Below are positions 1 through 16,307 of a DNA stretch of 24,000 nt, in pieces. The notes below the pieces were generated by a model. That model saw only the letters and a program-made list of their open reading frames with translations. It was not told the origin of the DNA and did no database searches. Within the stretch, counting starts at the first letter, position 1. Each line of letters starts with the position of its first letter. The DNA comes from an uncultured Lachnospiraceae bacterium (GTDB taxonomy: Bacteria > Bacillota > Clostridia > Lachnospirales > Lachnospiraceae), in the NCBI GenBank assembly GCA_910585075.1, contig CAJUED010000012.1, positions 1-24,000 of the forward strand, read 5' to 3'. The position numbers were made by a program, and so were the translations under genes.

Positions 1-1053
1 CTCATATCCCTGCTCCATCAGTTTCTTTTCCAGACGCCTGACCGCAGATTCCCTCAGCTGCCGCCGCCTTTCCCTTTTGTTTTCTGAATTTCGTTTTTCC
101 ATATCGGAAGCGTGTACGATCTGTATCCCGTTACGGATATCCTCCAGGTCCTGCATCAGATCCCGACTCTCCCGCTGTTCGGCACGGACGTTCAGAATCT
201 CAAAGGAAAAATACCTGCCGTGGTATTCAGAGAAAAACAGTTCCGTAAAATAGTGGTTCCGCATTTTCTCCTTTATCTTATCCTGGCAGAGCCTGGCGCA
301 TATTTTGGCGATATCCATGCTCACCGGATGGTCAAACAGCTTTTTTCCCTTAATGATCTGGGTATCCATCTGCCCCTCAAACAATGTGCCGTTTAAATCG
401 CACCTGAGATATGTGATCTTAACATCATAAAATACATTTCCCCTCTTTTTATCCAGCTCATGCCCCAGAACCGGGCACATCCCTGCGCACCTCCTTAATC
501 CACAGTAATAAGGATCATAATTCATTTCCCATTCCAGCGTATCCCTGTTAAACCTCGTATGCTCCCGGCAGACGCGACCCTTCTTCTGCAGCTCGAAACT
601 GACCTCCTGCCTTCGTATCTCTTCATCATGGAGTTTTAAGATATGCTCCACACTTCCTTCATAACAGTATTCTTCATCTGTCATATGAACTTCACAATCA
701 TACCGGAGTACGCCGTGATCCTGAAGGTACTCATGTTTCAGCGTACATTCCTTTTTTTCATAAGGACAGTGGATCGTTGCCATATCGTTTTCAAACGTCC
801 ACTCAATACCCATGTAACTCATGTTGCTGTGGCACTGGAGTCCTTTACACTGCAGACCGCAGGGAGTCTTAAAGGTCTGCTCATAGATCCACCAGCGTTC
901 ATAAGTAAAGCCTCCATAAAAATTATCAAGGGTCTTTTTCTCCCATGCGGAGACATCTACCCTTACATAGTCCGGATGGCGGTCTGCGGTATAGCCTTCC
1001 GCCAGCAGCCGTTTTGTCAAAGTGTTGTATTCCTTATACTCATTCTCTTTCAT
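1..1053 (-). CDS. Cys-rich conserved hypothetical protein of conjugative elements, partial (3' end runs off the window)
   Basis: Not in the supplied ORF track because it has no stop in the window. Hand translation from ATG at 1053-1051 gives MKENEYKEYNTLTKRLLAEGYTADRHPDYVRVDVSAWEKK...CGLQCKGLQCHSNM...YYCGLRRCAGMCPVLGHE...MEQGYE. It is open for all 351 codons down to position 1. The plus-strand ORFs 112-1294 are antisense junk. Confidence 0.75.
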   Translation of the reverse strand, partial: MKENEYKEYNTLTKRLLAEGYTADRHPDYVRVDVSAWEKKTLDNFYGGFTYERWWIYEQTFKTPCGLQCKGLQCHSNMSYMGIEWTFENDMATIHCPYEKKECTLKHEYLQDHGVLRYDCEVHMTDEEYCYEGSVEHILKLHDEEIRRQEVSFELQKKGRVCREHTRFNRDTLEWEMNYDPYYCGLRRCAGMCPVLGHELDKKRGNVFYDVKITYLRCDLNGTLFEGQMDTQIIKGKKLFDHPVSMDIAKICARLCQDKIKEKMRNHYFTELFFSEYHGRYFSFEILNVRAEQRESRDLMQDLEDIRNGIQIVHASDMEKRNSENKRERRRQLRESAVRRLEKKLMEQGYE

Positions 1054-1064
1054 TTTCTTCCTCC

Positions 1065-1268
1065 TTACAGGCCCTGGCAGGGGCGCATCCCAAAATAGTC
1101 TTCCATGCGGTCCCTCAGCCTCTCCGCTGACATGCCGTATTCTCCGGCAATACAGGATTCACAGCATGGATATTTGTATGCCAGGGTTTTTGATAACCGG
1201 GCATCCCAGCTGTTTAACTGCTGTCCGCATTTGTTACAGTCCTGATCCAGCCATCTTACTTTCTGCAA
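1065..1268 (-). CDS. Cysteine-rich VLP-domain small protein (conjugative-element associated)
   Basis: 67 aa with CNKCG...CCESC motifs and ending ...YFGMRPCQGL, which I recall as the Cys_rich_VLP family pattern. TTG start with GGAGGAG Shine-Dalgarno at 1273-1280. Stop lies 11 nt before the next backbone gene. Confidence 0.7.
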   Translation of the reverse strand: MQKVRWLDQDCNKCGQQLNSWDARLSKTLAYKYPCCESCIAGEYGMSAERLRDRMEDYFGMRPCQGL

Positions 1269-1280
1269 TCGTTCTCCTCC

Positions 1281-1379
1281 TTCCTGATATATAAATTTCT
1301 ATCCTCAGCCTTCCCGGCATCTGGGCAGAAAAAAAGCAGGAATGACTTCCCTGATATATATGGTGTCCATAATTTCTAT
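1281..1379. repeat. Direct repeat TTCC(C)TGATATATA...AATTTCTAT. Copy 1 is 1281-1302; copy 2 is 1347-1379 and carries a 10-nt insertion, TGGTGTCCAT.
   Basis: Read directly from the sequence. Copy 1 lies immediately upstream of the Cys-rich-VLP gene. Copy 2 fills the loop of the 12-bp inverted repeat at 1335-1399. Confidence 0.6.
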
Positions 1380-1399
1380 GAACCGGCGTCATTCCTGCT
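1329..1399 (-). terminator. Perfect 12-bp inverted repeat AGCAGGAATGAC (1335-1346) / GTCATTCCTGCT (1388-1399) with a 41-nt loop, followed on the minus strand by a T6 run. Terminator-like insulator or boundary structure.
   Basis: Arms are exact reverse complements and an A-run at 1329-1334 follows. The loop is much larger than in a canonical intrinsic terminator, so function is uncertain. Confidence 0.35.
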
Positions 1400-1719
1400 C
1401 TGATAAGAGATTATTAAATTCTAAACTAAAAAGCCAGCGGTAAATCACTTGCTGGGCATAGTGATACTGCTGGCACATTCATACAAACTTAACAGCGTGT
1501 GCAATGCGGGAAATATTCCGCCTACAGGTGTTTCTAACTGTATCTCCATAAAAGGATTCGCACAAAAATCAATTACAAGGGAAGTGTAGCACAAGATATG
1601 GAATCCGTCAACGAAAAAACTATAGGAGAACCTTTTCAGATTCTATTTAGATAACATAGAAATGACCAAATATCAGCTCAATGTGATATCAGTTCTCCCT
1701 ATATATTGTTGGTATTTCG

Positions 1720-1728
1720 TGATATAAT
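1720..1728 (+). promoter_or_regulatory. Extended -10 promoter element TGATATAAT upstream of gajA
   Basis: TGnTATAAT match 35 nt upstream of the GTG start, followed by GAGGAGGGG Shine-Dalgarno at 1748-1756. It is embedded in an imperfect inverted repeat, TTGGTATTT...AAATACtACCAA (1709-1742). No good -35 at 17-nt spacing. Confidence 0.4.
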
Positions 1729-1762
1729 ACAAATACTACCAACGAGATGAGGAGGGGTTATA

Positions 1763-3448
1763 GTGAAATTTAATTCTGTGACAATAAAGAATTTCAGGAA
1801 TTTTGAAGATATATCAATAAACTTAACCAATAAAAACGTCCTTTTTGGGATGAATGATGTAGGTAAGACAAACTTTCTGTATGCGTTAAGATTTATTTTC
1901 GATAAAGACATCAGAAAACAGAACTTCAATGATACGGATTACTACAAAAAGAATGTGGCTAATCCAATAGAGATTGTTATTGCAATTGATATTAGCGATA
2001 CAGAAGATGCAGATAGTCAAAAACTGCGTGCAAAATTGAAAGGCGCTATCCTTTCGGATCAGAATATTGTATATATCAAACTAATAGCCGATTATGACAA
2101 AAAGGAAATGATTGGCATTCCTGTTTTATACTGGGGTGGAGATATTGAAGATCTTGAAGAGATGAAAGTTCACGGCACATTCTTTGAGATTGATTATGTC
2201 TTTAATGTGATTTATATTGATGCATATGTTGATTTATATACACTATTTAAAAAGAATGCTAATACGCTACTTGTTAATGATAAGGAACAGGATAAAGATA
2301 TTTTAGAACGTATTGATAAGACATGTGACGAATTAAATACTCAGATATCTGGATTGTCCGGCATAAAGACTTTTGAAGAAAAAATTGCACCCGAATATAA
2401 AAAGTTTAGGCATGACGATATATCCGTGTCTGTAAAATCAGAAATAGCAGTAAAAGGTTTATATTCGAATATCGTTCCTTATATTAAACAAGATACTGAC
2501 GATTCTTTATATCCGACGTCTGGTGAGGGACGCAAAAAGCTTTTGGTATACGCTATTTTTGATTTACTCTCTAAAGAGGAAGAAGAAAAGAAAATCACTA
2601 TTTTTTTAATCGAAGAACCAGAAAACCATCTGCACCGTTCTATGCAGATAGCATTATCCCATATTTTATTTCTTGATAACAAATATCAATATTTGTTTAT
2701 GACAACTCATTCACCTTATGTCCTGGCAGAAATGGATCAGGTAAATCTGGTTCGAATATATAATGAAGACAAAATCGTGAGCAAAAGTGTTCTTTATACA
2801 GTGCCTGCTGAATTTAAAAGCCAAAGAAAAATGCTGAACAGAGGGCTGATAGAAGCTATTTTTGCTGATAAAGTGTTGCTTGTTGAAGGACCATCTGAAA
2901 ATGTTTTATTTGGAAAAGTATTGTCAGAGATAAACCCATTTTATGAAGCAGACGGAATTTACATACTTCCAGTAGGAGGATTTGGATTCAAGCCATATTA
3001 TCAGATATTAGATGCTTTGCAGATCGAAAATATTATTAAAACTGACAATGATTTGAGAAAGATAAAGGGAAAAGAAAAATATAGTGTATTAGGTTTTTCA
3101 AGATTAAATAATTATATAGGGAAAAAAATTCTTCCAGTTACTCCTATTAGTGAAACTGGTGTTGAAGCAAAGCGAAAACTATATGACAATAATCAACAAA
3201 AACTTGATCAAATTAGATCTGAATATTCAATCTATCTATCAAGATGTAGCCTGGAGGAAGATTTGGATGAAGTAATTCATGACCAGATGATTTCATACCT
3301 ACCTAATGCAGATGGGGATGTAATTGGATATTTGCAAGACGCTAAAAATAATCATATGGTTGAACTTGTTGAAAAACTTACAATAGAGGATTGTAAATGC
3401 ATTTATGAACACTATAACTTTGCTTGTTTAAAGGAGGTAATGCAGTAA
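1763..3448 (+). CDS. gajA: GajA, Gabija ATP-dependent OLD-family endonuclease (N-terminal ABC-type ATPase, C-terminal Toprim)
   Basis: 561 aa. N-terminus MKFNSVTIKNFRNFEDISINL..FGMNDVGKTNFLYALRF carries the Walker A motif. LIEEPENHLHRS is the Walker B/D-loop. VLLVEGPSENVLF..KTDND is the Toprim domain. C-terminus reads EHYNFACLKE. From memory these blocks closely parallel Bacillus cereus VD045 GajA; no alignment was computed. Confidence 0.9.
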   Translation: MKFNSVTIKNFRNFEDISINLTNKNVLFGMNDVGKTNFLYALRFIFDKDIRKQNFNDTDYYKKNVANPIEIVIAIDISDTEDADSQKLRAKLKGAILSDQNIVYIKLIADYDKKEMIGIPVLYWGGDIEDLEEMKVHGTFFEIDYVFNVIYIDAYVDLYTLFKKNANTLLVNDKEQDKDILERIDKTCDELNTQISGLSGIKTFEEKIAPEYKKFRHDDISVSVKSEIAVKGLYSNIVPYIKQDTDDSLYPTSGEGRKKLLVYAIFDLLSKEEEEKKITIFLIEEPENHLHRSMQIALSHILFLDNKYQYLFMTTHSPYVLAEMDQVNLVRIYNEDKIVSKSVLYTVPAEFKSQRKMLNRGLIEAIFADKVLLVEGPSENVLFGKVLSEINPFYEADGIYILPVGGFGFKPYYQILDALQIENIIKTDNDLRKIKGKEKYSVLGFSRLNNYIGKKILPVTPISETGVEAKRKLYDNNQQKLDQIRSEYSIYLSRCSLEEDLDEVIHDQMISYLPNADGDVIGYLQDAKNNHMVELVEKLTIEDCKCIYEHYNFACLKEVMQ

Positions 3449-4974
3449 TGTTATCCCCTATGCAAACGGAAATTGTTGAACAACCAGGAAATCTGATTGT
3501 TAGAGCGAGTGCTGGTACAGGAAAGACACATACCATGGTATCTAAAATTGTGTATGACATAGAACATCAACATACGCACAAGGTGGTTGCTGCAATCACT
3601 TTTACAATTAAAGCAGCTAATGAGATTAAAGAACGACTAACAATAGACACAACCAGCCATTTTATTGGAACAAACAACAGTTTCGCTATTGAAGAAATTA
3701 TTAAACCTTTTATGAAGGATGTGTTCGGTAAGACATATAAACTGGATATGAGTACGGACTATTCAGTAAAAGTAAACACATTTGAAGAAGGATTGGCAAA
3801 AATCAGAGACGAACAGGTTTTATGTTCGTATGTGAACAGTAAAGAAAACTTTATATTTCAGCTTGCTTTAGATATTTTGAAAAAGTCTAAAGCGTGTCAA
3901 TTATACTTACAGGCAAAGTATTTCAAGATTTATGTTGATGAATACCAAGACTGTGATAAAGATATGCATGCTCTTTTTATGTATATCTGTGAGTCTCTGA
4001 GCATAGACACTTTTGTTGTAGGCGATGAAAAGCAATCAATTTATATGTGGCGTGGGGCATATCCCAAAGCTTTCATAGGGATTTGGAACAGAAAAGATTT
4101 TTCCAAAAAGTTCATGAGAGATAATTTTCGTTCTTGTCAGCAAATACAAAACTATTCAAATTTACTGTGTGATGAAACCAGAGATTTATATAAGCCTATA
4201 GATGATTTGTCTTCTGTGATAATGATATGTGCCACTTCGGCTAATTGGGTATCATCGGTTATTCCGTATTTAGATTCCAATGAAAAATGTGCATTACTAA
4301 GATATAGCAATGCAAATGCTGAGGCGGGAGCTATAGATTTAACGAATGGAAATATGGAGTTTACATATATCCCACAAACACCGATTGCTGATATAACTAC
4401 AGAAACAGCATGGCTTTACAATGCCGTTGCCAAATTCTTTATTCTACCGAAATATTCGGCTTATGACTTTAGAGATGAAATACCCAACGAAGTAGTTGGA
4501 AACAAGAGAATCTTAAATTACATCAAAAAGGCATTAAGCGTTTTAGAGGGATGTATAAAGCAAGAAGATGCTTCTGGCTTTGAAAAACAAATTATACTAA
4601 TGGCAAATTACTTAGGGTATGAGACAAAGTCGGATCATTGTGATAGGCTGTATAGAACAATTTGCAATCAACGATATCATCCAGCATTTAATATTGACGG
4701 ATTGAAGCGGATCGCCATTACATTTCATTCATCAAAAGGGTTGGAGTTTGAACAGGTTATTTTATTTGTATCAGATTATAGATTATCAAGTGAACAGGAG
4801 ATATATAATTATTATGTTGCTACCACACGAGCAAAATCTAAATTGATTATGGTATATATTGATGATGACTGGAACGCAACCCAGTTTGCTAAAAATATAA
4901 ATAAGATTTTCGCCGAGTCGAATTTAAAAATGAGCGACGTAGCAACTGTTATAAATTGCTTGTGCTGTAATTAA
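3448..4974 (+). CDS. gajB: GajB, Gabija UvrD/PcrA-like superfamily-1 helicase/NTPase
   Basis: Motifs: ASAGTGKTHTM (Walker A), NFIFQLALDILKKS, YVDEYQDCDKDM (motif II), VGDEKQSIYMWRG, NFRSCQQIQNYSN and HSSKGLEFEQV..ATTRAK. Start placed at ATG 3448, giving a TAATG overlap with the gajA stop, with AAGGAGG at 3431-3437. The track's TTG at 3424 is in frame but unlikely. Confidence 0.9.
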   Translation: MLSPMQTEIVEQPGNLIVRASAGTGKTHTMVSKIVYDIEHQHTHKVVAAITFTIKAANEIKERLTIDTTSHFIGTNNSFAIEEIIKPFMKDVFGKTYKLDMSTDYSVKVNTFEEGLAKIRDEQVLCSYVNSKENFIFQLALDILKKSKACQLYLQAKYFKIYVDEYQDCDKDMHALFMYICESLSIDTFVVGDEKQSIYMWRGAYPKAFIGIWNRKDFSKKFMRDNFRSCQQIQNYSNLLCDETRDLYKPIDDLSSVIMICATSANWVSSVIPYLDSNEKCALLRYSNANAEAGAIDLTNGNMEFTYIPQTPIADITTETAWLYNAVAKFFILPKYSAYDFRDEIPNEVVGNKRILNYIKKALSVLEGCIKQEDASGFEKQIILMANYLGYETKSDHCDRLYRTICNQRYHPAFNIDGLKRIAITFHSSKGLEFEQVILFVSDYRLSSEQEIYNYYVATTRAKSKLIMVYIDDDWNATQFAKNINKIFAESNLKMSDVATVINCLCCN

Positions 4975-5295
4975 ATTATTATGAAACTAGCCTAGAAAAA
5001 CAGACACAGGGATGATTATATACTATTATAGAACAAAATGGAACTGTCGAAAGTGTGACTTGAGGGCTTGAAGCGTATCCAGTAGATGGAGTAAGCAAGG
5101 CACCCAAATAGTATTTACCACCAAACAGAATAGATTGTCTTATATGAGATAATTTATTTATAATAACATGGCAGAACTTTATAAACGTTATAAAAATGAA
5201 AAATATAGTTGGATTAGTCAAGCAAATAATAAAATACCAAAAACGAATCGAAGTTTGACATAACTTAGTCAACTCAATCAGTTAGGAGTGAAAAA

Positions 5296-5889
5296 ATGAA
5301 TTTAGATTTTAACCTCGCAGATTTTTTTAAATTGCCAACAAAAATTATGTTTGCTCTTGCCCTTGCTTCTGGTCTGGTTTTGTTTCTTCCAGATAGCATA
5401 GTCACGAAAATGTATATGGTTGATTTCAGAAATAAATATGGTTTTGTCATTGGGCTACTATTTTTAATTTCTTTTTCAATACTTGTAGTCACTGTTTTTA
5501 TAGGCATATATAAGTATTTTAATCATTTATATTTTATGAAGAAATTCAGAGCAACTGCAAAAGAAAGACTACAAAAGTTGGATAATTACCAAAAAGCAAT
5601 CGTGTATGGTCTGTATATGGAAGATAACCACACTGGCGAATTACCATTACATGACGGGGCTGTAAAATTGCTTAAGCAAAATATAATAATTACAGAAACC
5701 ACAAATCAATATGCTGTATCAGATTTAAACAATGCTGTTTTTCCTTATATGTTGCACCCATGGGTTATTGAAGAACTTCAAAAAGATAGTGAGTTGCTTT
5801 CCATTTTTAATGCAGCATATAAAGAAATGAATAATAAATACAAACTTCAAAGTCAATATGAGTCCTCATACCTTGACTTTCCGTACTAA
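5296..5889 (+). CDS. Two-TM membrane protein, superinfection-exclusion-B (SieB)-like; function unproven
   Basis: 197 aa with AGGAG Shine-Dalgarno at 5284-5288. Two hydrophobic helices (KIMFALALASGLVLFL; GFVIGLLFLISFSILVVTVFIGIY) are followed by a soluble domain, LDNYQKAIVYGLY...GELPLHDGAVKLLKQNIII. This layout resembles my recollection of Pfam SieB. It shares the AT-rich composition and strand of Gabija. Confidence 0.55.
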   Translation: MNLDFNLADFFKLPTKIMFALALASGLVLFLPDSIVTKMYMVDFRNKYGFVIGLLFLISFSILVVTVFIGIYKYFNHLYFMKKFRATAKERLQKLDNYQKAIVYGLYMEDNHTGELPLHDGAVKLLKQNIIITETTNQYAVSDLNNAVFPYMLHPWVIEELQKDSELLSIFNAAYKEMNNKYKLQSQYESSYLDFPY

Positions 5890-6067
5890 TCTATCAAGGA
5901 ATAATGAATTTTCTTATTGTCCTTTTTAATTGATAGTTATTTTTGATAAAATACGGTTCAACGGGTTGCTGGTTACCCACTCTTATAGACAGCTGATCAT
6001 TCCAGCACTTTAATGAAGAATTTAGAAAGTAACATATTAACCAGCTTGAATAGAAAAAGCATATAGT

Positions 6068-6112
6068 AAAATGGTCTAAGAAACCTGCATTTTCGGTTCC
6101 CTAGACCATTTT
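6068..6112. terminator. Bidirectional hairpin terminator between the convergent SieB-like and abiEii genes
   Basis: Perfect 11-bp stem AAAATGGTCTA (6068-6078) / TAGACCATTTT (6102-6112) with a 23-nt loop. A/T runs are built into both arms. It lies 8 nt beyond the abiEii stop. Confidence 0.5.
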
Positions 6113-6119
6113 ATTAGCT

Positions 6120-7043
6120 TCAATAAAAATTACTGAAATAGTCTCTACTGATAATTTCTCCTATTCCTCCTATAACCGTTTCGTAAGGAAGATATGTAAA
6201 CAACATCCTGCCTGTAATCTCTTCATAATCATTCCGGTATATTTCCTTATCCACAATTTCTGTCAAAAGGTCATTGATACATACCTCTTTTTGGGCAGAC
6301 GGACAGACCGGAAGAGGTTCCCGCAGGCATCGTACTTCCTTAACAAGCTCTGACAATGAAACATCTGGCGTTGTGTATTCCAGGATCTTATAGATATCAT
6401 ATAAATGTCGAGAATGCCGCTCTACCTTGCCAGACAGATAATAGTCACAGAGGGCAAAGACTTTATCAATAAGAGTCCGCTCAATCGCCTGGGTTGTGAT
6501 TTCAAAAGGCATAAGGTCAAATTCTTCTGCCAGTTCTTCCCGTCCTGCCATTTTCAGAAAACGATAAATATAGTTGTCAGCAATCCGATTTACTGTTGGA
6601 AACGGCAGGAGGGCAATATAGGTCTCGATGACCAGTTCCGGCTTTAATTCCAAAAGCGGGGAATAAATGCTGGGATAGCTGGCCTTGTAACAGTTATAAC
6701 TACGCCGGCTGCGGGTTTCTTCAAGGTTTGCAACAGAAAACCCAAGGGATTCTACAGAAGAAACCACCGCCTTTTTTAACTGACGCTTGCGGCTTTCGCC
6801 AGGAATGCCGTCTGATGCCGCATAAGAAATATCAATATCCTCCGAAAAACGATCCAGAATCTGATAGCACTTTGTAAGCGAGGTCCCTCCTTTAAAGACC
6901 ATTCCCTTCACCCTGGCGGCCAACTCTTTAAGAACAAGTGTAACATAATAATCTTTCTCAATGATTCCGGGCGGTATGTGCAGTTCGTTGGAAGCGGCAA
7001 CAACCAGTTCGCTGAATGCTTCCTTGTCATGATGTAAATTCAT
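6120..7043 (-). CDS. abiEii: AbiEii/AbiGii-family nucleotidyltransferase toxin (type IV TA / abortive infection)
   Basis: Carries FKGGTSLTKCY...RFSEDIDI, the signature of DUF1814/AbiEii nucleotidyltransferases. Start taken as ATG 7043 (MNLHHDKEAF), which overlaps the abiEi stop by 17 nt. The track's TTG at 7061 is less likely. Confidence 0.85.
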   Translation of the reverse strand: MNLHHDKEAFSELVVAASNELHIPPGIIEKDYYVTLVLKELAARVKGMVFKGGTSLTKCYQILDRFSEDIDISYAASDGIPGESRKRQLKKAVVSSVESLGFSVANLEETRSRRSYNCYKASYPSIYSPLLELKPELVIETYIALLPFPTVNRIADNYIYRFLKMAGREELAEEFDLMPFEITTQAIERTLIDKVFALCDYYLSGKVERHSRHLYDIYKILEYTTPDVSLSELVKEVRCLREPLPVCPSAQKEVCINDLLTEIVDKEIYRNDYEEITGRMLFTYLPYETVIGGIGEIISRDYFSNFY

Positions 7044-7653
7044 AAATAATACCCCATTCAATCAGTTTTTTTGCGGTAGACCCTGTAATGCCGGGCAGCA
7101 CGCCGGAAAGAAGAGCCTTGCTGTAATTTTTCTGTTTTGCATAGTTTTTTAAAAGCGCTCCGGTTTCTGCATCTGAAAGCTCCGAATATTTTTCTGCCTG
7201 GGAAACAGCATCAAGAAACTGGAGCAGTCCCGCATTTTCAGATGTTATAGCAACAGCTGGACGTTTCAGCCGGACGTTTTGGGAACCGACAGTAACATTG
7301 CGCCCTTTTGTCGCTTCTTTCGATGTTATGATTTCCAGTATAGCCGGCATCTGGGTCGTCAGGCCAATCTGGTTAGCAAACGTAGCTCCGGCGAAATAAC
7401 CGTAGACTTCTGTTGTGTTTTGGATATATTTGCGTATAATGACCTTCATGGGGTCTAAATAACTTTTTTTCAGCAGACGTGATGCTTTGGGAAGATAATA
7501 GATCCCAGTATCAAACCGGGCAAGGTCACCGGATTTGAGCATCCGTTTAAAATACTGACGCAGGGCATTATCATTGATTCCGTCCAGCCGGATCTCGTTA
7601 ATGAAAATCGGTTCATTGTAACCATAGTTTTTTTCCAGATATTCTTTCAGCAT
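7027..7653 (-). CDS. abiEi: AbiEi-family antitoxin / transcriptional regulator (type IV TA)
   Basis: N-terminal winged-helix-like region with ...SGDLARFDTGIYYLP, typical of AbiEi_4/DUF6088 proteins. It sits directly upstream of, and overlaps, abiEii. Start preferred at ATG 7653 (MLKEYLEK), which has GGAAGGAG upstream. ATG 7680 has no Shine-Dalgarno and would lie inside the predicted promoter. Confidence 0.75.
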   Translation of the reverse strand: MLKEYLEKNYGYNEPIFINEIRLDGINDNALRQYFKRMLKSGDLARFDTGIYYLPKASRLLKKSYLDPMKVIIRKYIQNTTEVYGYFAGATFANQIGLTTQMPAILEIITSKEATKGRNVTVGSQNVRLKRPAVAITSENAGLLQFLDAVSQAEKYSELSDAETGALLKNYAKQKNYSKALLSGVLPGITGSTAKKLIEWGIIYEFTS

Positions 7654-7682
7654 ACAGGCATCCACTCCTTCCACCTCCATAC

Positions 7683-7728
7683 TACTATATTTATACCTAA
7701 AAGGTCAATAGATATGTCAAATATAGTA
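7683..7728 (-). promoter_or_regulatory. abiE promoter with a flanking 10-bp inverted repeat (candidate AbiEi operator)
   Basis: Arms TACTATATTT (7683-7692) and AAATATAGTA (7719-7728) are exact reverse complements. On the minus strand they bracket TTGACA and TATAAA(T) hexamers with a 19-nt spacer. AbiEi proteins are known to autoregulate through promoter inverted repeats. Confidence 0.45.
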
Positions 7729-7846
7729 TGTATGATTTTTCAAAAATTATACACGGAGGATAAAGGAGCGGAAAGCTTTGTATATAAGCCTGTATACCAT
7801 AATTTCCCTTTTAAAGTGTAGTTTTCAGGTCTAAGAACAGAAATTT

Positions 7847-8371
7847 TTACAGTTCCGTATCTGCCCGGTCATAGTACAAATGCCCCTGTGCCACTTTCGC
7901 ATGGTTCAAAATCAGTATGAAATGCCTGTCCTGGTTCTCCAATGCCTTTTTATATCCGGTTTTCGTCAGAAACAGTCTCATCCGACTCCCTTTATCCCCT
8001 ATGGGAGACTTTTCCGAAAGTACATCAAACACAATCATATGCTCTACTTCCGGATCAAAGCGTTCCAATGCCATGATATCATGTCCTTCCAGCTTCCGGG
8101 CACCGGATTTCTGCCGGGCCACAGCAATCATTTCCCCGACAGTCCTTGCGCTATGGGGCAGATGATAATTTCTCTGAATGTCACAGATCAGTTCTCTGCA
8201 GTCATCCTCCGAAAGTTCACGCAGTTTCTTTAACAGATTTTCTGCAGTATCCTTTTTATCATGGTCACGGGTATACCTGCAGAATACAGCAATCTCCTGT
8301 ATTGCATCATATCTGCCGCACCCCTCCAGCTGAAAGACCATCCTTTTCTCATCTTCAGTCAATGTTATCAT
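7847..8371 (-). CDS. TTRAP-like (transposon-transfer assisting) N-terminal domain fused to an uncharacterised C-terminal domain
   Basis: Start placed at ATG 8371 (MITLTEDEKRMVFQLEGCGRYDAIQEI...) with GGAGGA at 8377-8382. The N-terminal roughly 70 aa follow the TTRAP pattern as I recall it (xTxEExxxxxxx....L..L..LSDxD). I do not recognise the C-terminal roughly 100 aa. Confidence 0.5.
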   Translation of the reverse strand: MITLTEDEKRMVFQLEGCGRYDAIQEIAVFCRYTRDHDKKDTAENLLKKLRELSEDDCRELICDIQRNYHLPHSARTVGEMIAVARQKSGARKLEGHDIMALERFDPEVEHMIVFDVLSEKSPIGDKGSRMRLFLTKTGYKKALENQDRHFILILNHAKVAQGHLYYDRADTEL

Positions 8372-8419
8372 ATATTTCCTCCAATCCATAATTGCCTGTA
8401 TATTTCATATAGCTGCCTG

Positions 8420-8965
8420 TTATTGCTCTCTGGCATCCTTATCATCCGGAAAGAACTTCTCCAGAATGTCGATACTGTCTTTGGATGTATACCCCCACAA
8501 GATAGAGCTGAGTGCGTCAATCGCCTCCCGTCTTCTGCGGTAATAAGTGCGGAAACTGATATCCCGGATATGGGGGCGCAGTTTCTCTATGATTTCCTCC
8601 ACATTCCGCAACTGTTGTGGAGAAAGGAAAGAGTAATACAGCAGCCAGTAATAGCTCTCCCCATTCTTGTGTTTAGTGCGGAGCAGGTCGATGGAAGTAT
8701 CCAGTAGTTTCAGCATCCGGTGGCTCCGTTCAATGCATTTGGCGTGATGTTCGATACTGCGGTCTGACAGATCGATCCCGGCAACATAGACGGACTCCAG
8801 AAAGTCCTCAATGGAACTGCCGTATTCAATCTCGAACCGGCTCCGTACCTGCTGGACGGACAGTTCCAAGCTCCACACCACATCCCTGTATTTCTTCAGC
8901 AGTTTCCAGGTATCATGGTACAGCGGGTTGTCAGTGATGTTCATTTCTTCCTGATTCTTTTTCAT
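8420..8965 (-). CDS. Sigma-70 region-4 / ArpU-like transcriptional regulator of the mobile element
   Basis: 181 aa. The C-terminal ...ISFRTYYRRRREAIDALSSILWG resembles the HTH tail of ArpU/sigma-like regulators found in clostridial conjugative transposons. ATGA overlap with the upstream HTH gene (8962-8965). Shine-Dalgarno GGGGGAG is present. Confidence 0.5.
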   Translation of the reverse strand: MKKNQEEMNITDNPLYHDTWKLLKKYRDVVWSLELSVQQVRSRFEIEYGSSIEDFLESVYVAGIDLSDRSIEHHAKCIERSHRMLKLLDTSIDLLRTKHKNGESYYWLLYYSFLSPQQLRNVEEIIEKLRPHIRDISFRTYYRRRREAIDALSSILWGYTSKDSIDILEKFFPDDKDAREQ

Positions 8966-10119
8966 GCTCTTTCTCCCCCTTCCTCATTCTTTTCAGCAGG
9001 CATGAGAACCAGCTCAAAAGTGTAGACTGGCTTATCTTCTCCGCAGCATACCGCCATTCCAAAACGTACTGCAGTCTTTGGTGTATGACATATATACTCT
9101 TCCCTGCAGGCGTCTGATAAAGGATATAACTTATATATAGATTTCTGGCACTGAAAACAGGAAATTCCCTGTGCATCAAGGACTTGCGCTATTTTTCTGA
9201 TAACAGCATCCATGTCTGATTTTGAAACGCAGGATAATTCTTCTGAAACGCATGCCTCATACCCAGTAACAACAGAATCTGCCTGCGGCTCTTCTTTATC
9301 CGGCAGCGTGATATTGATTTTCAGGATCATGGCAACCTCCTCTTTATCCACAAGAACATCTGATATCTGGAACATGGTGGAAAGATAGCTGTGCAGATAG
9401 ATCACACTGCCTGTTTTTCCGGGAAATGACATGAGAGAAATATAGTCCATGTCAGCAAGTTTTTTCAGCACACGCCCTGTCGTGGCTTTGGAGATGCCCC
9501 AGCGGGCAGCCATCTCACTGTAAGCCACTAACGGGGAGCCGGTGCCATTGCGGAAGTAAGCAACCGGGCCAATCTCCGAACCCTGCACCTGGCTGTCATT
9601 GTAGACAGCAGACATCCACAGATCCAGCAGGATATCCATTTCGGAACAGCGGCCGGCGCTGACCAGTTCGGTTGCAACAACAACCGGCATAAAGAAAAAG
9701 CCCGTATCTTTCTGACAGGGGCAGTTGTAATCCAGTACCGTATTCTGTTTTTTCCAGTCACGGATCTTATATTTGATTACCTTCCCACGGTCGAGGAAGA
9801 GATAGGAGATCAGGTGGCGTTTCTGCAGCTCGTCCAGGATGGAGACTGCCTGGCACTGGAAACGGGTACGGAACCATGCAGACAGTTCCTTTACGGTACA
9901 GATCCACTCGCCGGGATATACCGTATAGCCGATTCCATCTATACGGAGATAAGAGGTACGGAAGTTTGCATAGTTGCAGAGCACCGTATAATAAAACAGA
10001 CCGGAGCCTCCATTTGTACGAATGCTCCGGTCTGCCATTAAGTTCTGGATAAACTGCCGATAGATCCGGCAGCGTGGATAATCCACAATCTGTTTGATTT
10101 CTAATTGATATTCTGACAT
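8962..10119 (-). CDS. Helix-turn-helix (winged-helix) domain protein of the element; putative replication or regulatory function
   Basis: Start at ATG 10119 (MSEYQLEIKQIVDYPRCRIY...) with AGGAGAAAATC upstream; the track's 10209 start lacks a Shine-Dalgarno. Internal HTH reads YSEMAARWGISKATTGRVLKKLADMDYISL. Translationally coupled to the sigma-like gene. Confidence 0.6.
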   Translation of the reverse strand: MSEYQLEIKQIVDYPRCRIYRQFIQNLMADRSIRTNGGSGLFYYTVLCNYANFRTSYLRIDGIGYTVYPGEWICTVKELSAWFRTRFQCQAVSILDELQKRHLISYLFLDRGKVIKYKIRDWKKQNTVLDYNCPCQKDTGFFFMPVVVATELVSAGRCSEMDILLDLWMSAVYNDSQVQGSEIGPVAYFRNGTGSPLVAYSEMAARWGISKATTGRVLKKLADMDYISLMSFPGKTGSVIYLHSYLSTMFQISDVLVDKEEVAMILKINITLPDKEEPQADSVVTGYEACVSEELSCVSKSDMDAVIRKIAQVLDAQGISCFQCQKSIYKLYPLSDACREEYICHTPKTAVRFGMAVCCGEDKPVYTFELVLMPAEKNEEGGERA

Positions 10120-10188
10120 GATTTTCTCCTCATTTCTTAAAGTTTTTCTGATGCGAAAATTAAGTTTCTGCTGTTTACTCATTTTCTG

Positions 10189-10229
10189 CAAAAAAAATCT
10201 ACAAGACAAATTTCCAATGTCTTGTAGAT
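10189..10229 (-). terminator. Rho-independent terminator: 12-bp stem, 9-nt loop and T-run on the minus strand
   Basis: ATCTACAAGACA (10197-10208) and TGTCTTGTAGAT (10218-10229) are exact reverse complements. On the minus strand the stem is followed by T7 (plus-strand A-run 10190-10196). It sits between the uvrB junction and the first element gene. Confidence 0.6.
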
Positions 10230-10347
10230 CATAAATCAGCCTCTATTTCTTTTTCAAAATACTTTCCACGACGAATTTTGTTCACAATTCCTATGATTCC
10301 ACCCTGTTTTTTCAGTCCATACAGTCCATTCATTCCACAAGATATAG

Positions 10348-10377
10348 TATAAATAGGACTAAATAACACTAAATACA
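10348..10377. repeat. Three tandem 10-bp units (TATAAATAGG / ACTAAATAAC / ACTAAATACA) next to the element/uvrB junction
   Basis: Read directly. The core (C)TAAATA recurs with 10-bp helical phasing, 20-50 bp inside the apparent junction. Confidence 0.55.
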
Positions 10378-10397
10378 GTAGTTAGAAGTGCCTACTC

Positions 10398-10670
10398 CTA
10401 GTAGCTTACAAAGTACTCCACCGCATTCTCAGGGAAGAACTCCTTGAACTCGCCGTACAACTGTCCGGCCAGGGTTTTATTGTGGGCTATTACCAAAGTA
10501 GGCTTGTTTATAGCGGCAATCACATTTGCCATGGTAAAGGTCTTTCCGGAACCCGTTACCCCCAGTAAAGTCTGGAATTGATTGCCTTCTTTGAAGCCTT
10601 TGACCAGGGCTTCTATGGCCTGCGGCTGGTCGCCGGTAGGCTTATATTCACTGTGCAGTTTAAACTCCAT
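10398..10670 (-). pseudogene. uvrB: uvrB 5' fragment (excinuclease ABC subunit B, first 90 codons only), interrupted by the mobile element
   Basis: [52 protein letters not shown]...[14 protein letters not shown] is the canonical UvrB N-terminus including Walker A. Full-length UvrB is about 660 aa and continues YYDYYQPEAY. Here a TAG follows at 10398-10400 and the downstream DNA is unrelated. Confidence 0.85.
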
Positions 10671-10780
10671 AAACCTAATTCACCTCCAGAAATAAAATTT
10701 AAATGCTCTATTCCCACAGCAAAAAATCTGACCATTGATACGGCATTCCTGTATATGCTGCCTGTGCAAAAGCAGTTTTG

Positions 10781-10809
10781 ATTATAACATACGGGATAAA
10801 ATTTGTACA
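10781..10809 (-). promoter_or_regulatory. Candidate uvrB promoter: extended -10 TGtTATAAT and -35 TGTACA
   Basis: On the minus strand, TATAAT is the complement of 10781-10786, preceded by TGt. TGTACA lies at 10804-10809 with a 17-nt spacer. It is about 110 nt upstream of the uvrB ATG. Confidence 0.4.
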
Positions 10810-10819
10810 GCACTTTTCA

Positions 10820-10831
10820 GAACATTTGTTC
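10820..10831. promoter_or_regulatory. LexA (Cheo-type SOS) box GAACATTTGTTC
   Basis: aGAAC-N4-GTTCt palindromic arms match the Firmicutes LexA consensus CGAAC-N4-GTTCG core. It sits just upstream of the candidate -35 of uvrB, a classic SOS gene. Confidence 0.55.
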
Positions 10832-10964
10832 TTATTTCATAACAGTTCAGCCTTCAACTTCACTGTTACGGAATCTCTCCGGTTTCATACAATAATGGGA
10901 AAGTTGATGTTTCCGGCATTTATCTCAACCGAAAATACAACTTTCCCATTTATTCTTAACCATA

Positions 10965-12266
10965 TTACTGCTTCTTAGCAATTTCCTGCTCTAATATCTC
11001 AATCGCCTTATCCACCTGGTTATCGCTTCCGCTGGCCTCGCTGGCTTCATAGTCATACTCCAATTCAATATCCGGTTTGATTCCCGTACCATGGATATTC
11101 CTTCCCAGGGGCGTATAATAAGCGCTGATGGTCAGCTTAAGGGCGGTACCGTCGTTGAGCCGGTGTATCTGCTGGACAATTCCCTTTCCGTAGGTAGTGG
11201 TTCCAACCAGCGTGCCCTTTTTATAATCCTGAATGGCCCCTGCCAGTATCTCGGAAGCGCTTGCCGAATATTCATTTACCAGTACCACCAGGGGAACATC
11301 CAGCTCCTTTTCCCCGTCGCAGGAGTATTCCTTCCGTGTTCCCTGTTTGTCCTCGGTGTATACGATAAGCCCCTCCGGCAGTATTTTTCTGGCGATTTCC
11401 ACCACCGCATTTAAATCGCCCCCGGGATTGCTGCGAAGGTCAAGTATCATACCTTCCATACCGTTTGCCCGCAATTCCGCCATCGCCTCCGTATACTGGT
11501 CCACGGTCACCGCGTCAAACTCCTGAATCCGCAGATACCCGATATTGTCGGCATCCTCCAACATACCGCTGTCCACCGTGTTGGTCTCCAGCCGTTTGCT
11601 CCGTTTGATTTCCATCCGCTGGAAATCAACCTCGCCTTCCCTGTAAATCGTCAATTCCACAGTGGTTCCTTCCCGTCCCTTCACCAGGCTGACCACCTGG
11701 GTAAGGCTCATTCCCTGGGTGGACTCGCCGTCCACCTCATAAATGATATCCCCTTCCCTAAGACCTGCCTCCTCAGCCGGGGAGCCTTCCATAACCCCGT
11801 TAATCATGGCGATATTCATCTGCTTGCTCATGGAAATATAAGCCCCTATTCCATAAGAAACCCCCTGATTGCTGTTTACCACTTCCTCCAGTTCTTCTTT
11901 GGAATAATACTCGGAATAAGGGTCCCCTAAGGCATTTACCATTCCTTTATAAATGCCTTCCTGTATTCTTTCTTCGTCTATCTTATCCTCATAGAAATAA
12001 TACTCATTGATAGCATTCTCTATAATCTGCATTTTCTCAAAGGTGTCGGCAGTCACCACACTTTCACTGCCGCCCTCCGCAGCCGTATCCACCACGCGCC
12101 CTTTGTACAGCCGGTAAATCGTCCTTCCCAGATATCCGCATGTAAAAAGCAGGGATATGACAAGCATTCCCGTAACCATACCGCCTAAAAAGTATCCGGA
12201 ATGCTTCCCCTTCACCGGCTCATCCTGTCTCTCTATTCTGTTGTCCGTTCCCTCTGCCTTGTCCAC
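10965..12266 (-). CDS. S41 family C-terminal processing (tail-specific) protease with N-terminal TM anchor and PDZ domain
   Basis: 433 aa with a TM helix (FLGGMVTGMLVISLLF) and PDZ-like GDIIYEVDGEST. S41 catalytic blocks are LDLRSNPGG, SASASEILAGA and KGIVQ. GTG start with GGAGAG Shine-Dalgarno. Confidence 0.85.
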   Translation of the reverse strand: MDKAEGTDNRIERQDEPVKGKHSGYFLGGMVTGMLVISLLFTCGYLGRTIYRLYKGRVVDTAAEGGSESVVTADTFEKMQIIENAINEYYFYEDKIDEERIQEGIYKGMVNALGDPYSEYYSKEELEEVVNSNQGVSYGIGAYISMSKQMNIAMINGVMEGSPAEEAGLREGDIIYEVDGESTQGMSLTQVVSLVKGREGTTVELTIYREGEVDFQRMEIKRSKRLETNTVDSGMLEDADNIGYLRIQEFDAVTVDQYTEAMAELRANGMEGMILDLRSNPGGDLNAVVEIARKILPEGLIVYTEDKQGTRKEYSCDGEKELDVPLVVLVNEYSASASEILAGAIQDYKKGTLVGTTTYGKGIVQQIHRLNDGTALKLTISAYYTPLGRNIHGTGIKPDIELEYDYEASEASGSDNQVDKAIEILEQEIAKKQ

Positions 12267-12320
12267 TTATATTCTCTCCATTCCGGTCAATCTCTGTCTT
12301 TCCACAATCTCACAATTTAT

Positions 12321-13541
12321 TCAGCCCCCTAAGTACTTCCTGGGATTCACATAGCTTCCGTTTAACCGTACCCCAAAGTGCAGGTGGTTTCCCGTGGAAC
12401 GCCCCGTGCTTCCCACTGCTGCAATCTTAGCTCCCTTTGAGACTTCCGCCCCCTTTGAAACATAAAGAGCTGACGCATGCATGTAAATCGTATACAGGCC
12501 GTCGCCGTGATCTATCATAATATAGTTTCCCATACTGCCGCTGTAGGCTGCAGCCACAACTTTTCCATCATAGGCCGCCAAAATGGGACTTCCTCCCGGC
12601 GCCGCCATATCAAGGCCGTTATGAAATTTCTTCACCTTTAAGGTAGGATGCATACGCTCCCCGTATTCGTCAGAAATCCTTGTATAGGAAGGCGCGGGCC
12701 ACGTAAACATGCCTCCGTCATACCGGCGTGCCTGCTCCTCCGCCAGCTTCTTCTTCTCCTCGGCAACCGCCGCTTCCAGCGCCGCAATAGTCTCATTTTC
12801 AGATGCAATGCTGGCCTCGTACTCCTTGATGGCAGCCTCTTTGTCCTTGATGTCCCCTGAAACCTTATAAATTTCCTGTTCCTTGGCCGCTATCAGTTCG
12901 TTTAAAGAGGCTTCTTCTTTCCTGGCCGCCTCCTTGGCTTCCTCCAGGACTCCCTTTTCTTCTTCCAATCCTTCTTTGCACAGCGACACATACTCCGCAT
13001 AAGCCACATATTCATCCAGCATTTTCCTGTCATAGGCGGAAAGCATCTCTATGTAATCCGCCTTATTCAGCATATCTCCAAAGCTCTCCGCCTCCAAAAA
13101 GAGCTCCAGAAACAGAGTATCACCTTTTTCATACATGAATTTGATGCGGTTCTTCATGGCTTTATACTGGTCCTGCTGGGTTTCGATGGCCTCCTCCAGC
13201 TCCCCGGTTTTCACATTGATTTCTTCTTCTTTCTCCTCAATCATTGTTTTGAGTTCGTTGAGCTTTGCCTGAATACCCGCAAGGTCAGTGTCCAGCTTCG
13301 CCACATAATTGGCCAGATCCGCCTTGGACGCCTCCAGCTGCTTTTTCAATTCTTTTACATTTGTAAGGCCGCCCTGCAGCGCCTTTTTTTCTTCCTTTGC
13401 TTTATTGATTTCTGCTTCCTTCTTTTTGATACTGTCATTGGTCAGCTCGCTGGCATAAGCAGTGGTCTCACCCTCCCAGGCAATTCCCCAAACCAGTCCA
13501 AGGCAAAGCAGCACACAAAGCATATTTCTCCATCGCCTCAT
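12321..13541 (-). CDS. M23 family metallopeptidase with signal peptide and long coiled-coil N-terminus (EnvC/PcsB-like FtsEX partner)
   Basis: Signal-like MLCVLLCLGLVWGIAW, then a roughly 250-aa K/E/A-rich coiled coil. C-terminal LytM motifs are HNGLDMAAPGGSPI and GNHLHFGVRLNG. Directly downstream of ftsEX. Confidence 0.85.
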   Translation of the reverse strand: MRRWRNMLCVLLCLGLVWGIAWEGETTAYASELTNDSIKKKEAEINKAKEEKKALQGGLTNVKELKKQLEASKADLANYVAKLDTDLAGIQAKLNELKTMIEEKEEEINVKTGELEEAIETQQDQYKAMKNRIKFMYEKGDTLFLELFLEAESFGDMLNKADYIEMLSAYDRKMLDEYVAYAEYVSLCKEGLEEEKGVLEEAKEAARKEEASLNELIAAKEQEIYKVSGDIKDKEAAIKEYEASIASENETIAALEAAVAEEKKKLAEEQARRYDGGMFTWPAPSYTRISDEYGERMHPTLKVKKFHNGLDMAAPGGSPILAAYDGKVVAAAYSGSMGNYIMIDHGDGLYTIYMHASALYVSKGAEVSKGAKIAAVGSTGRSTGNHLHFGVRLNGSYVNPRKYLGG

Positions 13542-14449: not shown

Positions 14450-15185
14450 CTATGTAGCCACCTTTTTCTTCGTCGCTTACAATGACGCCTTTCTTCATGG
14501 TAACAACCCTCTTTTGCATTGCATTGACAATCTCACGATTGTGGGTTACCACAAGCACCGTCGTTCCGTTTTCGTTAATCTGCTCCAGCAGCTTCATAAT
14601 TTCCCAGGAATTCTTAGGGTCCAGATTACCCGTAGGCTCGTCCGCAAGCAGAATGCTGGGGCGGTTCACAAGCGCCCTGGCAATGGCCACTCTCTGCTGC
14701 TCCCCTCCGGAGAGCTGTCTGGGTTTTGCTTTATACTTTCCCGCCAGCCCCACAATTGCCAGAATGCTGGGAACATTCCGCTTAATTTCTTTGTTTGACA
14801 CCTGTATAATGCGCTGTGCAAAAGCCACATTTTCATATACGTTTCTGTCCTTCAAAAGACGGAAATCCTGGAACACAATACCAAGATTTCTTCGGAATTT
14901 GGGTATTTTCCTGTGGCGTATCCGCACCAGATCGTACCCCATCACATTAATATCGCCTGAAGTGGGTACAAGTTCTCTAAGCAGGAGCTTGATCATGGTA
15001 GATTTCCCCGATCCGCTGTCCCCTACAATAAATACGAATTCGCCCTTTTTAATATGTAAACTGACTCCGTTTAACGCAGGGGCCCCTGTGGCATACGCTT
15101 TACTTACATTGTTCAGCGTAATAATTTCATCCCCTCCGGAAATATGCTTTTTTCTTCTCCTGCTTCTTGCGTCACTTCTTACCAC
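14439..15185 (-). CDS. ftsE: FtsE cell-division ABC ATPase
   Basis: Walker [10 protein letters not shown], signature [15 protein letters not shown] and Walker [16 protein letters not shown] start at 15185 with GGAGGA upstream. The exact start is ambiguous (see finding). Confidence 0.9.
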
Positions 15186-15218
15186 AATTATCCTCCGCCT
15201 GTACTTTCGTACTTCATT

Positions 15219-16307
15219 TTAATAATCAAGACTTTCCATATAATTCATATATTTCACTACCATAAGCGCAATTCTAAATGTAATGGCATCTTCAAAAATC
15301 CGAAGATCCAGCCCGGTACTCTTTTGCAGCTTATCCAGACGGTACACCAATGTATTCCTGTGGATAAACAACTGCCTTGAAGTCTCGGATACATTCAGGC
15401 TGTTTTCAAAAAACTTGTTGATGGTTGTAAGGGTTTCCTCATCAAATTCATCCAGCCCCCTGCCTCCAAAAATTTCTTTGATAAACATCTTACAAAGGGG
15501 AATGGGCAGCTGATAAATCAAACGGCCAATCCCAAGCTCGCTGTAGGCAATGATATTTCTCTCGTCAAAAAAGATTTTTCCTACATCCATAGCCATTTTT
15601 GCTTCCTTGTAGGAGCGGCTTACCTCTTTAATCTCCCTGACCACCGTCCCATAAGCAATATGTACTTCCGTCATGCCCTCTTTCTTTAAGAAGGCCTCCA
15701 TGCTGTCCGCATTCCTTTCAATTTCCTTAGCGCTGTCTCCTTCGGACAAATCTTTAACCACAATCACATTATTTTCATCCACTGCAGTGACGAAATCCTT
15801 CGTGTTACTGCCGTAAAAACTCCTTATGGTTTCTAAGATATTACTGTCCCGGCTGGCGCCTGTCTCAATGACCATCACCACACGCTTTACATCCGTCTGT
15901 ATATGCAGTTTTTTGGCGCGGCTGTAAATATCCACCAAAAGCATATTATCCAGCAGAAGGTTTTTGATAAAATTGTCCTTGTCAAACCGTTCTTTATAAG
16001 CCACCAGCAGATTTTGAATCTGGAACGCTGCCATCTTTCCAACCATGTACACGTCCTCTCCGATTCCCGCCGCAATCAGAACATACTCAGGCTGCTGCTC
16101 ATCATATATTTTAAAATATTGATATCCCCGTATCTCCTGAGAATCCGCCGGTGATTTGGCAAACTCCACCGTCTCCGTCTCACAGCCCGACATGGCAGGC
16201 GACGTGCAGGCAGCTTCTTTCCCATCCACATCCATAACGCAAAAATCTACCCTTGCAATTGCCTTAAGCCCCTCAATTGTGTTTTGCAAAATTTGATTAG
16301 AAATCAT
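15219..16307 (-). CDS. PucR/CdaR-family transcriptional regulator
   Basis: 362 aa. The C-terminal [33 protein letters not shown] matches the PucR C-terminal HTH pattern. Strong Shine-Dalgarno AAGGAGGGGG. Confidence 0.8.

Follow-up and report, generated by a model that had tools for sequence, protein, structure and literature searches.

The window analysed here comprises 24,000 nucleotides at the start of a contig from an uncultured Lachnospiraceae bacterium (G000:C12:1-24000, window base 1 being the first base of the contig). We regard it as very probable that its positions 1 to 10397 represent the attL-proximal end of an integrative and conjugative element (ICE) of gut Lachnospiraceae, inserted at codon 90 of uvrB, and that a cargo hotspot of this element, located between the genes for a small cysteine-rich protein (p67) and a DUF5720 protein, holds three independent, intact modules that were acquired separately. 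That Gabija, a SieB-family protein, and AbiE constitute three anti-phage modules stacked in a swappable cargo slot near the end of the ICE is well supported. All three belong to known families, and swappable defence cargo on mobile elements is already a well-established concept; the uvrB-targeting element family of the Lachnospiraceae and its hotspot were not found described in the literature searched. To our knowledge, mobile immunity has been little studied in gut Lachnospiraceae. A cleanly bounded defence hotspot has now been defined in an ICE family of these bacteria, which displays the exchange of cassettes between related elements, and the unannotated genes found where known defence systems normally sit provide a short list of candidates for new defence systems.

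A preliminary description of this DNA had placed two anti-phage systems and a putative exclusion protein at 1763-7653, with the backbone genes all on the minus strand and Gabija and the SieB-like gene on the plus strand. Searches with PADLOC and Pfam profiles supported Gabija, AbiE, and the SieB family with strong matches, the coordinates proved right to within a few codons, and the listing of open reading frames agrees with the proposed strand pattern for all visible backbone genes (Table 1). The right end of the block needs a small correction: abiEi is present, as described, while position 7653 corresponds to an internal methionine at codon 10 and the gene reaches 7680.

A variable slot between p67 and the DUF5720 gene

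Relatives of the element were collected in a scan with the DUF5720 protein, yielding 39 loci, mostly from mouse-gut Lachnospiraceae, in which gene order was mapped by tblastn and breakpoints by blastn. Cultured bacteria are among the carriers, for example Acetatifactor aquisgranensis DSM 110981 (L014). The relatives share a common order of uvrB stub, p415, p181, DUF5720 gene, slot, p67, and p351, and the proposal that the slot is a cargo hotspot is borne out by the many different genes, most of them defence genes, that they carry between the DUF5720 gene and the gene for the cysteine-rich protein of 67 residues. Across the 39 loci, at least ten distinct known or candidate systems occupy this interval. 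AbiE of type 1 adjoins the DUF5720 gene in about 16 of the roughly 35 informative relatives, and a second AbiE subtype with a DUF6577-type AbiEi is found in about seven loci. Other occupants are Lamassu (LmuA/LmuB; L024, L028, and L043), AbiL together with a type II CBASS of cyclase, E1-E2, and 2TM/SAVED effector (L019), Mokosh (MkoA/MkoB in L038 and an MkoB homologue, assigned by clustering, in L039), Ietas (IetA/IetS; L037), a DruB-like gene (L035), PDC-M37A/B (L021, L040, and L042), a NACHT protein of 1946 residues (L023), a PLD-like nuclease with a MatE efflux gene (L030), and TetR with an ABC exporter (L012, L013, and L026). Gabija and SieB recur as in the window in L047 and L084. The hotspot is dominated by defence genes, but not exclusively composed of them.

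Several slot proteins are without a PADLOC or Pfam match. One such protein of 298 residues (L032:10635-11531, with homologues in L024, L028, L039, L043, and L045) is encoded directly after the DUF5720 gene in five of the six loci and further downstream in L039, sometimes with Lamassu following, and is a candidate for an uncharacterised hotspot gene. Further occupants of 326 to 635 residues (L034:12450-14357, L033:11513-12889, and L015:4053-5357 on the minus strand; L020:12944-13924 and 14503-16101; L025:7774-9162) gave no family match, or only weak matches to HEPN or PDC-M36A, and are possible novel defence genes.

The limits of the variable segment in the window were placed against six different relatives in all (Table 1), and the right breakpoint adjoins a 9-bp inverted repeat with arms at 6070-6078 and 6102-6110. 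The block from about 1500 to 6000 has a GC content of 31-34%, as opposed to 43-49% for AbiE and the backbone, and the sharply exchanged segment from 1625 to 6107 averages 32%. Identity to the relatives follows the same division. The backbone and AbiE of the window are 96-99% identical to L012, whose cargo differs and contains neither gajAB nor sieB, whereas L047 and L084 share 89-91% identity with the window in gajA, gajB, and sieB but only 84-86% in the backbone. For the uvrB stub, identity to the L012 counterpart reaches only 84.7%, as expected given that the stub lies outside the element. The simplest account of this mosaic is that the low-GC cassette of gajAB and sieB would have come from a related element, through homologous recombination across conserved flanking sequence. 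Recent exchange is confined to 1625-6107, and the slot itself was put together from units acquired independently of each other, gajAB (1764-4989) and sieB (5270-6033).

Whether AbiE belongs to the same acquisition is a separate question. In about half of the relatives AbiE of type 1 is absent and Lamassu, Ietas, AbiL with CBASS, or AbiE of type 2 directly follows the DUF5720 gene instead, as might be expected if the whole of 1763-7680, AbiE included, were one recent cargo island lacking any conserved component. We consider this improbable: the GC content of AbiE resembles that of the backbone (43-45%), AbiE is, like the backbone, 97-98% identical to L012, which has no gajAB or sieB, and the breakpoints fall at 6108-6115 rather than at 7680-7847. 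AbiE is instead an older, semi-conserved cargo of the element family, with abiEii found in 15 relatives at 83-97% identity and abiEi in 21. The comparison with relatives thus upholds the view of the block as non-backbone cargo for gajAB and sieB, which are exchanged, and only in part for AbiE.

Integration at uvrB and the extent of the element

Next to the conserved terminus of the element lies a displaced 5' stub of the host uvrB gene, which marks the integration site (Table 1). In every stub aligned, the junction reads ...GTGTCCTAC|TA and is followed by the conserved element terminus. From position 10965 on, the window contains chromosomal housekeeping genes, including those for a ctpA-like S41 peptidase and an M23 peptidase, ftsX, ftsE, and others. 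The remainder of uvrB is on contig C22, where it covers profile positions 69-658 and extends as far as the contig end, and the 5' overlap there (L004:3190-3252) matches the element-type uvrB 5' part of genomes G001 and G002 and of locus L047, and not the displaced stub of the window.

The element of G001 spans about 104 kb. Here, the stub is followed by p415, p181, the DUF5720 gene, about 100 kb of other genes, two tyrosine integrases, and an intact uvrB, with IntA and IntB encoded immediately upstream of the intact gene (G001:C1:145111-149865) and 104 kb from the stub. This relative also encodes a VirD4-type coupling protein, a VirB4-like ATPase-PrgI fusion, a VirB11-like ATPase, and a C39-like hydrolase. 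Two tyrosine integrases likewise lie next to the restored uvrB in G002, where a 24-kb relative (L019) stands in tandem before a second copy (L013), with two stubs 24 kb apart and an intact uvrB. Given that the element carries a promoter and uvrB codons 1-90 downstream of its two tandem tyrosine integrases, uvrB is regenerated. Judged from these sequences, the family would consist of integrative elements that target uvrB and restore it on insertion, and the 104-kb form, at least, would be conjugative. In G001, a decayed C-terminal IntB fragment is located just upstream of the uvrB stub (G001:C1:42424-42945), a sign that an earlier element once occupied this site.

Table 1. Features of the window between the contig start and the uvrB stub, in order of position.
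Feature	Position	Strand	Observations
p351	1-1053	-	No family; C-terminus lost at contig start; full-length version in L012 has 401 residues
p67	1065-1268	-	67 residues, 7 Cys; left flank of the slot; 94-98% identical in relatives
Region upstream of p67	1269-1624		Conserved backbone
Left breakpoint	1614-1624		blastn homology to L012, L021, L023, L030, L040, and L044 stops at 1611-1624
gajA	1763-3448	+	PADLOC PDLC00081, E = 1e-233; Pfam AAA_15 and OLD-like_TOPRIM; OLD-family ABC ATPase with TOPRIM nuclease
gajB	3424-4974	+	PADLOC PDLC00122, E = 3e-183; Pfam UvrD-helicase; UvrD-like superfamily 1 helicase
Window-specific spacer	4985-5269		285 bp; absent from L047 and L084
sieB	5296-5889	+	PF14163, 115.1 bits against a cut-off of 26; profile positions 1-146 of 147
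Right breakpoint	6108-6115		blastn homology to L012, L021, L030, and L040 resumes; just downstream of the abiEii stop codon
abiEii	6120-7061	-	PADLOC PDLC02292, E = 7e-79, near full length; PF08843, 91.5 bits; DUF1814 nucleotidyltransferase toxin
abiEi	7027-7680	-	PADLOC PDLC02236, E = 7e-72, alignment from residue 10; Pfam DUF6088; antitoxin/regulator
DUF5720 protein	7847-8389	-	PF18987, E = 2e-41; flanks the hotspot on the right; 79-99% amino acid identity across 39 related loci
p181 and p415	8420-10209	-	Conserved in relatives; possibly regulatory
Left (attL-side) terminus of the element	10210-10397		97.9% identical to L012
Displaced 5' stub of host uvrB	10398-10670	-	Codons 1-90, then TAG; TIGR00631 positions 1-89; marks the integration site

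The genes flanking the slot are conserved in position, with p351 found next to p67 at 82-97% amino acid identity in at least ten relatives. Of the functional labels proposed for these backbone genes in the preliminary description, the cysteine-rich character of the 67-residue protein stands, while Cys_rich_VLP, TTRAP, sigma, and HTH did not reach significance in Pfam. More specifically, p67 matched no Pfam model at E <= 0.01, the TTRAP match of the DUF5720 protein is sub-threshold (E = 0.009), p181 (8420-8965, the proposed sigma factor) gave no family match, and p415 (8962-10209, the proposed HTH protein) gave no significant match, with MarR appearing only below the threshold. The same genome bin contains a second, divergent relative of the p351/p67 region (G000:C97:2799-3761) at 69-76% nucleotide identity.

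Gabija, AbiE, and the SieB-family gene

GajA can be aligned from end to end with the solved GajA of Bacillus cereus (E = 1e-145) and retains the Walker A motif (GMNDVGKTN), the TOPRIM glutamate (EGPSE), and the DxD motif (KTDND) of that protein, while GajB gives a full-length match to GajB in the PDB (E = 2e-93) and retains helicase motifs I (AGTGKT), II (DEYQD), and VI (VATTRAK). Given these full-length alignments and the conservation of catalytic and helicase motifs, both genes look intact. The two reading frames overlap by 25 nucleotides if gajB starts at a TTG codon; another possible start is the ATG at 3460. Homology with eight unrelated metagenomic Gabija loci sets the boundary of the module at exactly 1764-4989, and a search for Gabija across the class was of little use, with one other match in 399 genomes. 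From what is known of the family, GajA would act as a nucleotide-sensing ATPase and TOPRIM nuclease in complex with GajB, the nuclease being kept off by cellular nucleotide levels, and depletion of nucleotides during phage replication would allow GajAB to cut DNA.

The AbiE genes are bicistronic, with abiEi directly upstream of abiEii and a 35-nucleotide overlap between them. By analogy with characterised systems, AbiEii would be a nucleotidyltransferase toxin that arrests growth, and AbiEi would neutralise the toxin and autoregulate, as in a type IV toxin-antitoxin pair. The module could thereby provide abortive infection and probably also addiction that stabilises the element, a role that would fit AbiE because it is semi-conserved next to the backbone. 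The gap between the DUF5720 gene and abiEi (about 7700-7860) is a second insertion point: in L023, L031, L044, and L047 (about 10540-12610) it holds the second AbiE subtype, made up of the DUF6577-type AbiEi and an AbiEii of PDLC02299, and these loci have lost the type-1 abiEii, so that its abiEi partner persists as an orphan or in truncated form.

The SieB-family protein was not detected by PADLOC and is recognised through its Pfam match (Table 1). It has two hydrophobic helices (approximately residues 15-32 and 49-76), both of which are helical in an AlphaFold model (pLDDT 83.7) that predicts two N-terminal transmembrane helices followed by a compact alpha/beta soluble C-terminal domain. A Foldseek search with this model returned no match at E <= 0.001; among the weak matches, the best viral one is a 195-residue protein of the phage P22 N operon (E = 0.04, probability 1.00), and others are winged-helix regulators of the MarR type (E of about 0.03-0.1). 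As a hint only, the soluble domain may be winged-helix-like, and the predicted fold is compatible with the family assignment without proving it. PF14163 is carried by all 87 SieB homologues collected. Almost none were found in a phage collection and the prophage context of phage-type SieB was not encountered, the homologues sitting in ICEs and defence islands. The protein of the window can be called a member of the sequence family; functional equivalence to phage SieB would go beyond the sequence evidence.

Genomic contexts were sampled for SieB homologues of 46-81% identity. They include positions beside a reverse transcriptase (L051) and beside a KAP NTPase next to Kiwa (L055), in a serine-recombinase element (L053) and in a guaA-adjacent island, once immediately before another kind of Gabija-like pair (L061), and solo positions inside the conjugation modules of Tn916-like or other ICEs (L058, L060, and L062). 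Together these indicate that SieB-family genes are common stand-alone cargo of Gram-positive mobile and conjugative elements. Single sieB inserts in such modules of Tn916-like or other Firmicute ICEs (L058, L059, and L060, each at about 7001-7600, and L062:7001-7552) have the gene for a coupling protein resembling FtsK or VirD4 on one side and DUF961 or Maff2 genes on the other, and many of them are encoded on the opposite strand. On a Planococcus contig (L057:5238-6564), sieB follows the gene for a 244-residue nucleotide cyclase at a distance of 29 nucleotides and is next to a PycTM-containing Pycsar locus; going by this arrangement, SieB-family proteins might be able to act as the membrane effectors of systems built on cyclases.

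The position of sieB next to Gabija might suggest that its product is an accessory third part, a membrane effector or regulator, of this Gabija subtype, so that the slot would hold a three-gene Gabija variant plus AbiE. Indeed, sieB shares strand and low GC content with gajAB, the order gajA-gajB-sieB is kept in L047 and L084, and in the independent locus L061 sieB directly precedes another Gabija-like pair. Nevertheless, we consider such a coupling very unlikely. A metagenome scan provided 65 close Gabija loci, defined by GajB relatives of 73-90% amino acid identity with at least 900 nucleotides of downstream sequence, and 64 of these are without SieB, the one exception belonging to the same element type. 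Gabija homology stops at 4989, ahead of sieB, and most SieB homologues occur without Gabija. In the window, gajB and sieB are moreover separated by the 285-bp spacer, which contains the best sigma-70-like promoter match of the region (5135-5164, plus strand, score 10 of 12), and sieB probably has its own promoter. The sieB unit of 5270-6033 is common only to the window, L047, and L084. Given its absence from nearly all close Gabija loci and the varied contexts of its homologues, SieB is most plausibly a mobile module of a single gene that stands on its own.

Two further candidates in the spacer were rejected. An open reading frame of 97 codons on the minus strand (4979-5272) has a low-complexity hydrophobic translation with no family match and is absent from L047 and L084, and the spacer is no repeat or miniature inverted-repeat transposable element, being present in a single copy in the genome and having no Rfam match.

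The homologues adjoining coupling protein genes in L058, L060, and L062 invite a different explanation, namely that the SieB-family protein serves conjugative entry or surface exclusion for the ICE rather than protection from phages, and a small membrane protein would resemble many exclusion factors. This, too, seems doubtful to us and we give it little weight, since other homologues occur in non-conjugative defence contexts (the reverse transcriptase, the KAP NTPase with Kiwa, the Pycsar-like locus, and the guaA-adjacent island), SieB is absent from most relatives of this ICE, and sieB of the window resides in a defence slot far from the type IV secretion genes of the relatives. In addition, the founding member of the Pfam family is the SieB protein of phages, by which the lytic cycle of a superinfecting phage is aborted; SieB of P22 halts macromolecular synthesis midway in this cycle (PMC10461980). 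By analogy with P22, an ICE-borne SieB acting as an independent anti-phage module would probably act at the membrane and cut short the lytic development of the infecting phage. More tentatively, SieB-family proteins, with two transmembrane helices and a cytoplasmic domain that would be winged-helix-like, may form a single-gene abortive-infection module, complete in itself and widely carried as cargo by ICEs and defence islands of Bacillota, with the hotspot of this element family holding further, wholly uncharacterised defence genes; we regard this broader proposal as possible rather than likely. Taken together, the three defence layers would protect the host of the ICE and travel with it.

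Several observations weigh against this overall interpretation. The window contains only the attL-proximal 10.4 kb of the element, and neither the integrase end nor the type IV secretion part was found in the window's own, 90%-complete bin, where the best integrase match is 28% identical; because the rest of the element is not in its bin, the ICE status of this copy rests on the relatives. Of these, L019 is only about 24 kb long and may be non-conjugative. The slot is not purely a defence locus, given the efflux cargo of L012, L013, L026, and L030. The adjacency of sieB and Gabija in L061 leaves a small possibility of functional coupling, and tests of SieB function in Gram-positive bacteria were not found in the literature.

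Relation to known systems

The Gabija system of Bacillus cereus VD045 (PDB 8J4T, 8SM3, and 8TK0) consists, as here, of two adjacent genes with the same domain architecture, whereas the copy of the window is borne by an ICE in a clostridial host. In the AbiEi/AbiEii systems of Lactococcus and Streptococcus agalactiae, an upstream antitoxin gene likewise overlaps the gene for a DUF1814 nucleotidyltransferase toxin. The AbiEi of the window differs in being of the DUF6088-type subfamily, and the semi-conserved occurrence of this AbiE in one ICE family suggests an added role in element maintenance. SieB of phages lambda and P22, which comes with an Esc-type self-immunity product, resembles the protein of the window in its Pfam family (PF14163), its length (about 195 residues), and its N-terminal membrane anchor, but the gene described here occurs on ICEs and in defence islands of Bacillota rather than in prophages, and the evidence from fold comparison is weak (E = 0.04).

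Ample documentation exists for defence hotspots on ICEs and satellites as well as on prophages and genomic islands. Hotspot 5 of the SXT/R391 ICEs is a defence hotspot of integrative elements, and others have been described for P2/P4 (PMC13586616) and for genomic islands of Pseudomonas (PMC12629846). As in these cases, the slot of the Lachnospiraceae element is a fixed, backbone-flanked position that holds different anti-phage systems in each relative, with cargo of atypical GC content exchanged by recombination in the flanks. It differs from them in its gut Lachnospiraceae host, the uvrB target, the two tyrosine integrases, the DUF5720/p67 backbone, and a cargo that also includes efflux genes. 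Similar to islands that target tRNA or tmRNA genes, the element brings a copy of the end of its target gene, which stays intact, and tandem arrays leave displaced stubs behind. In contrast to those islands, which use the 3' end of an RNA gene, the element targets a repair gene that codes for a protein, at its 5' part, and supplies uvrB codons 1-90 and the promoter.

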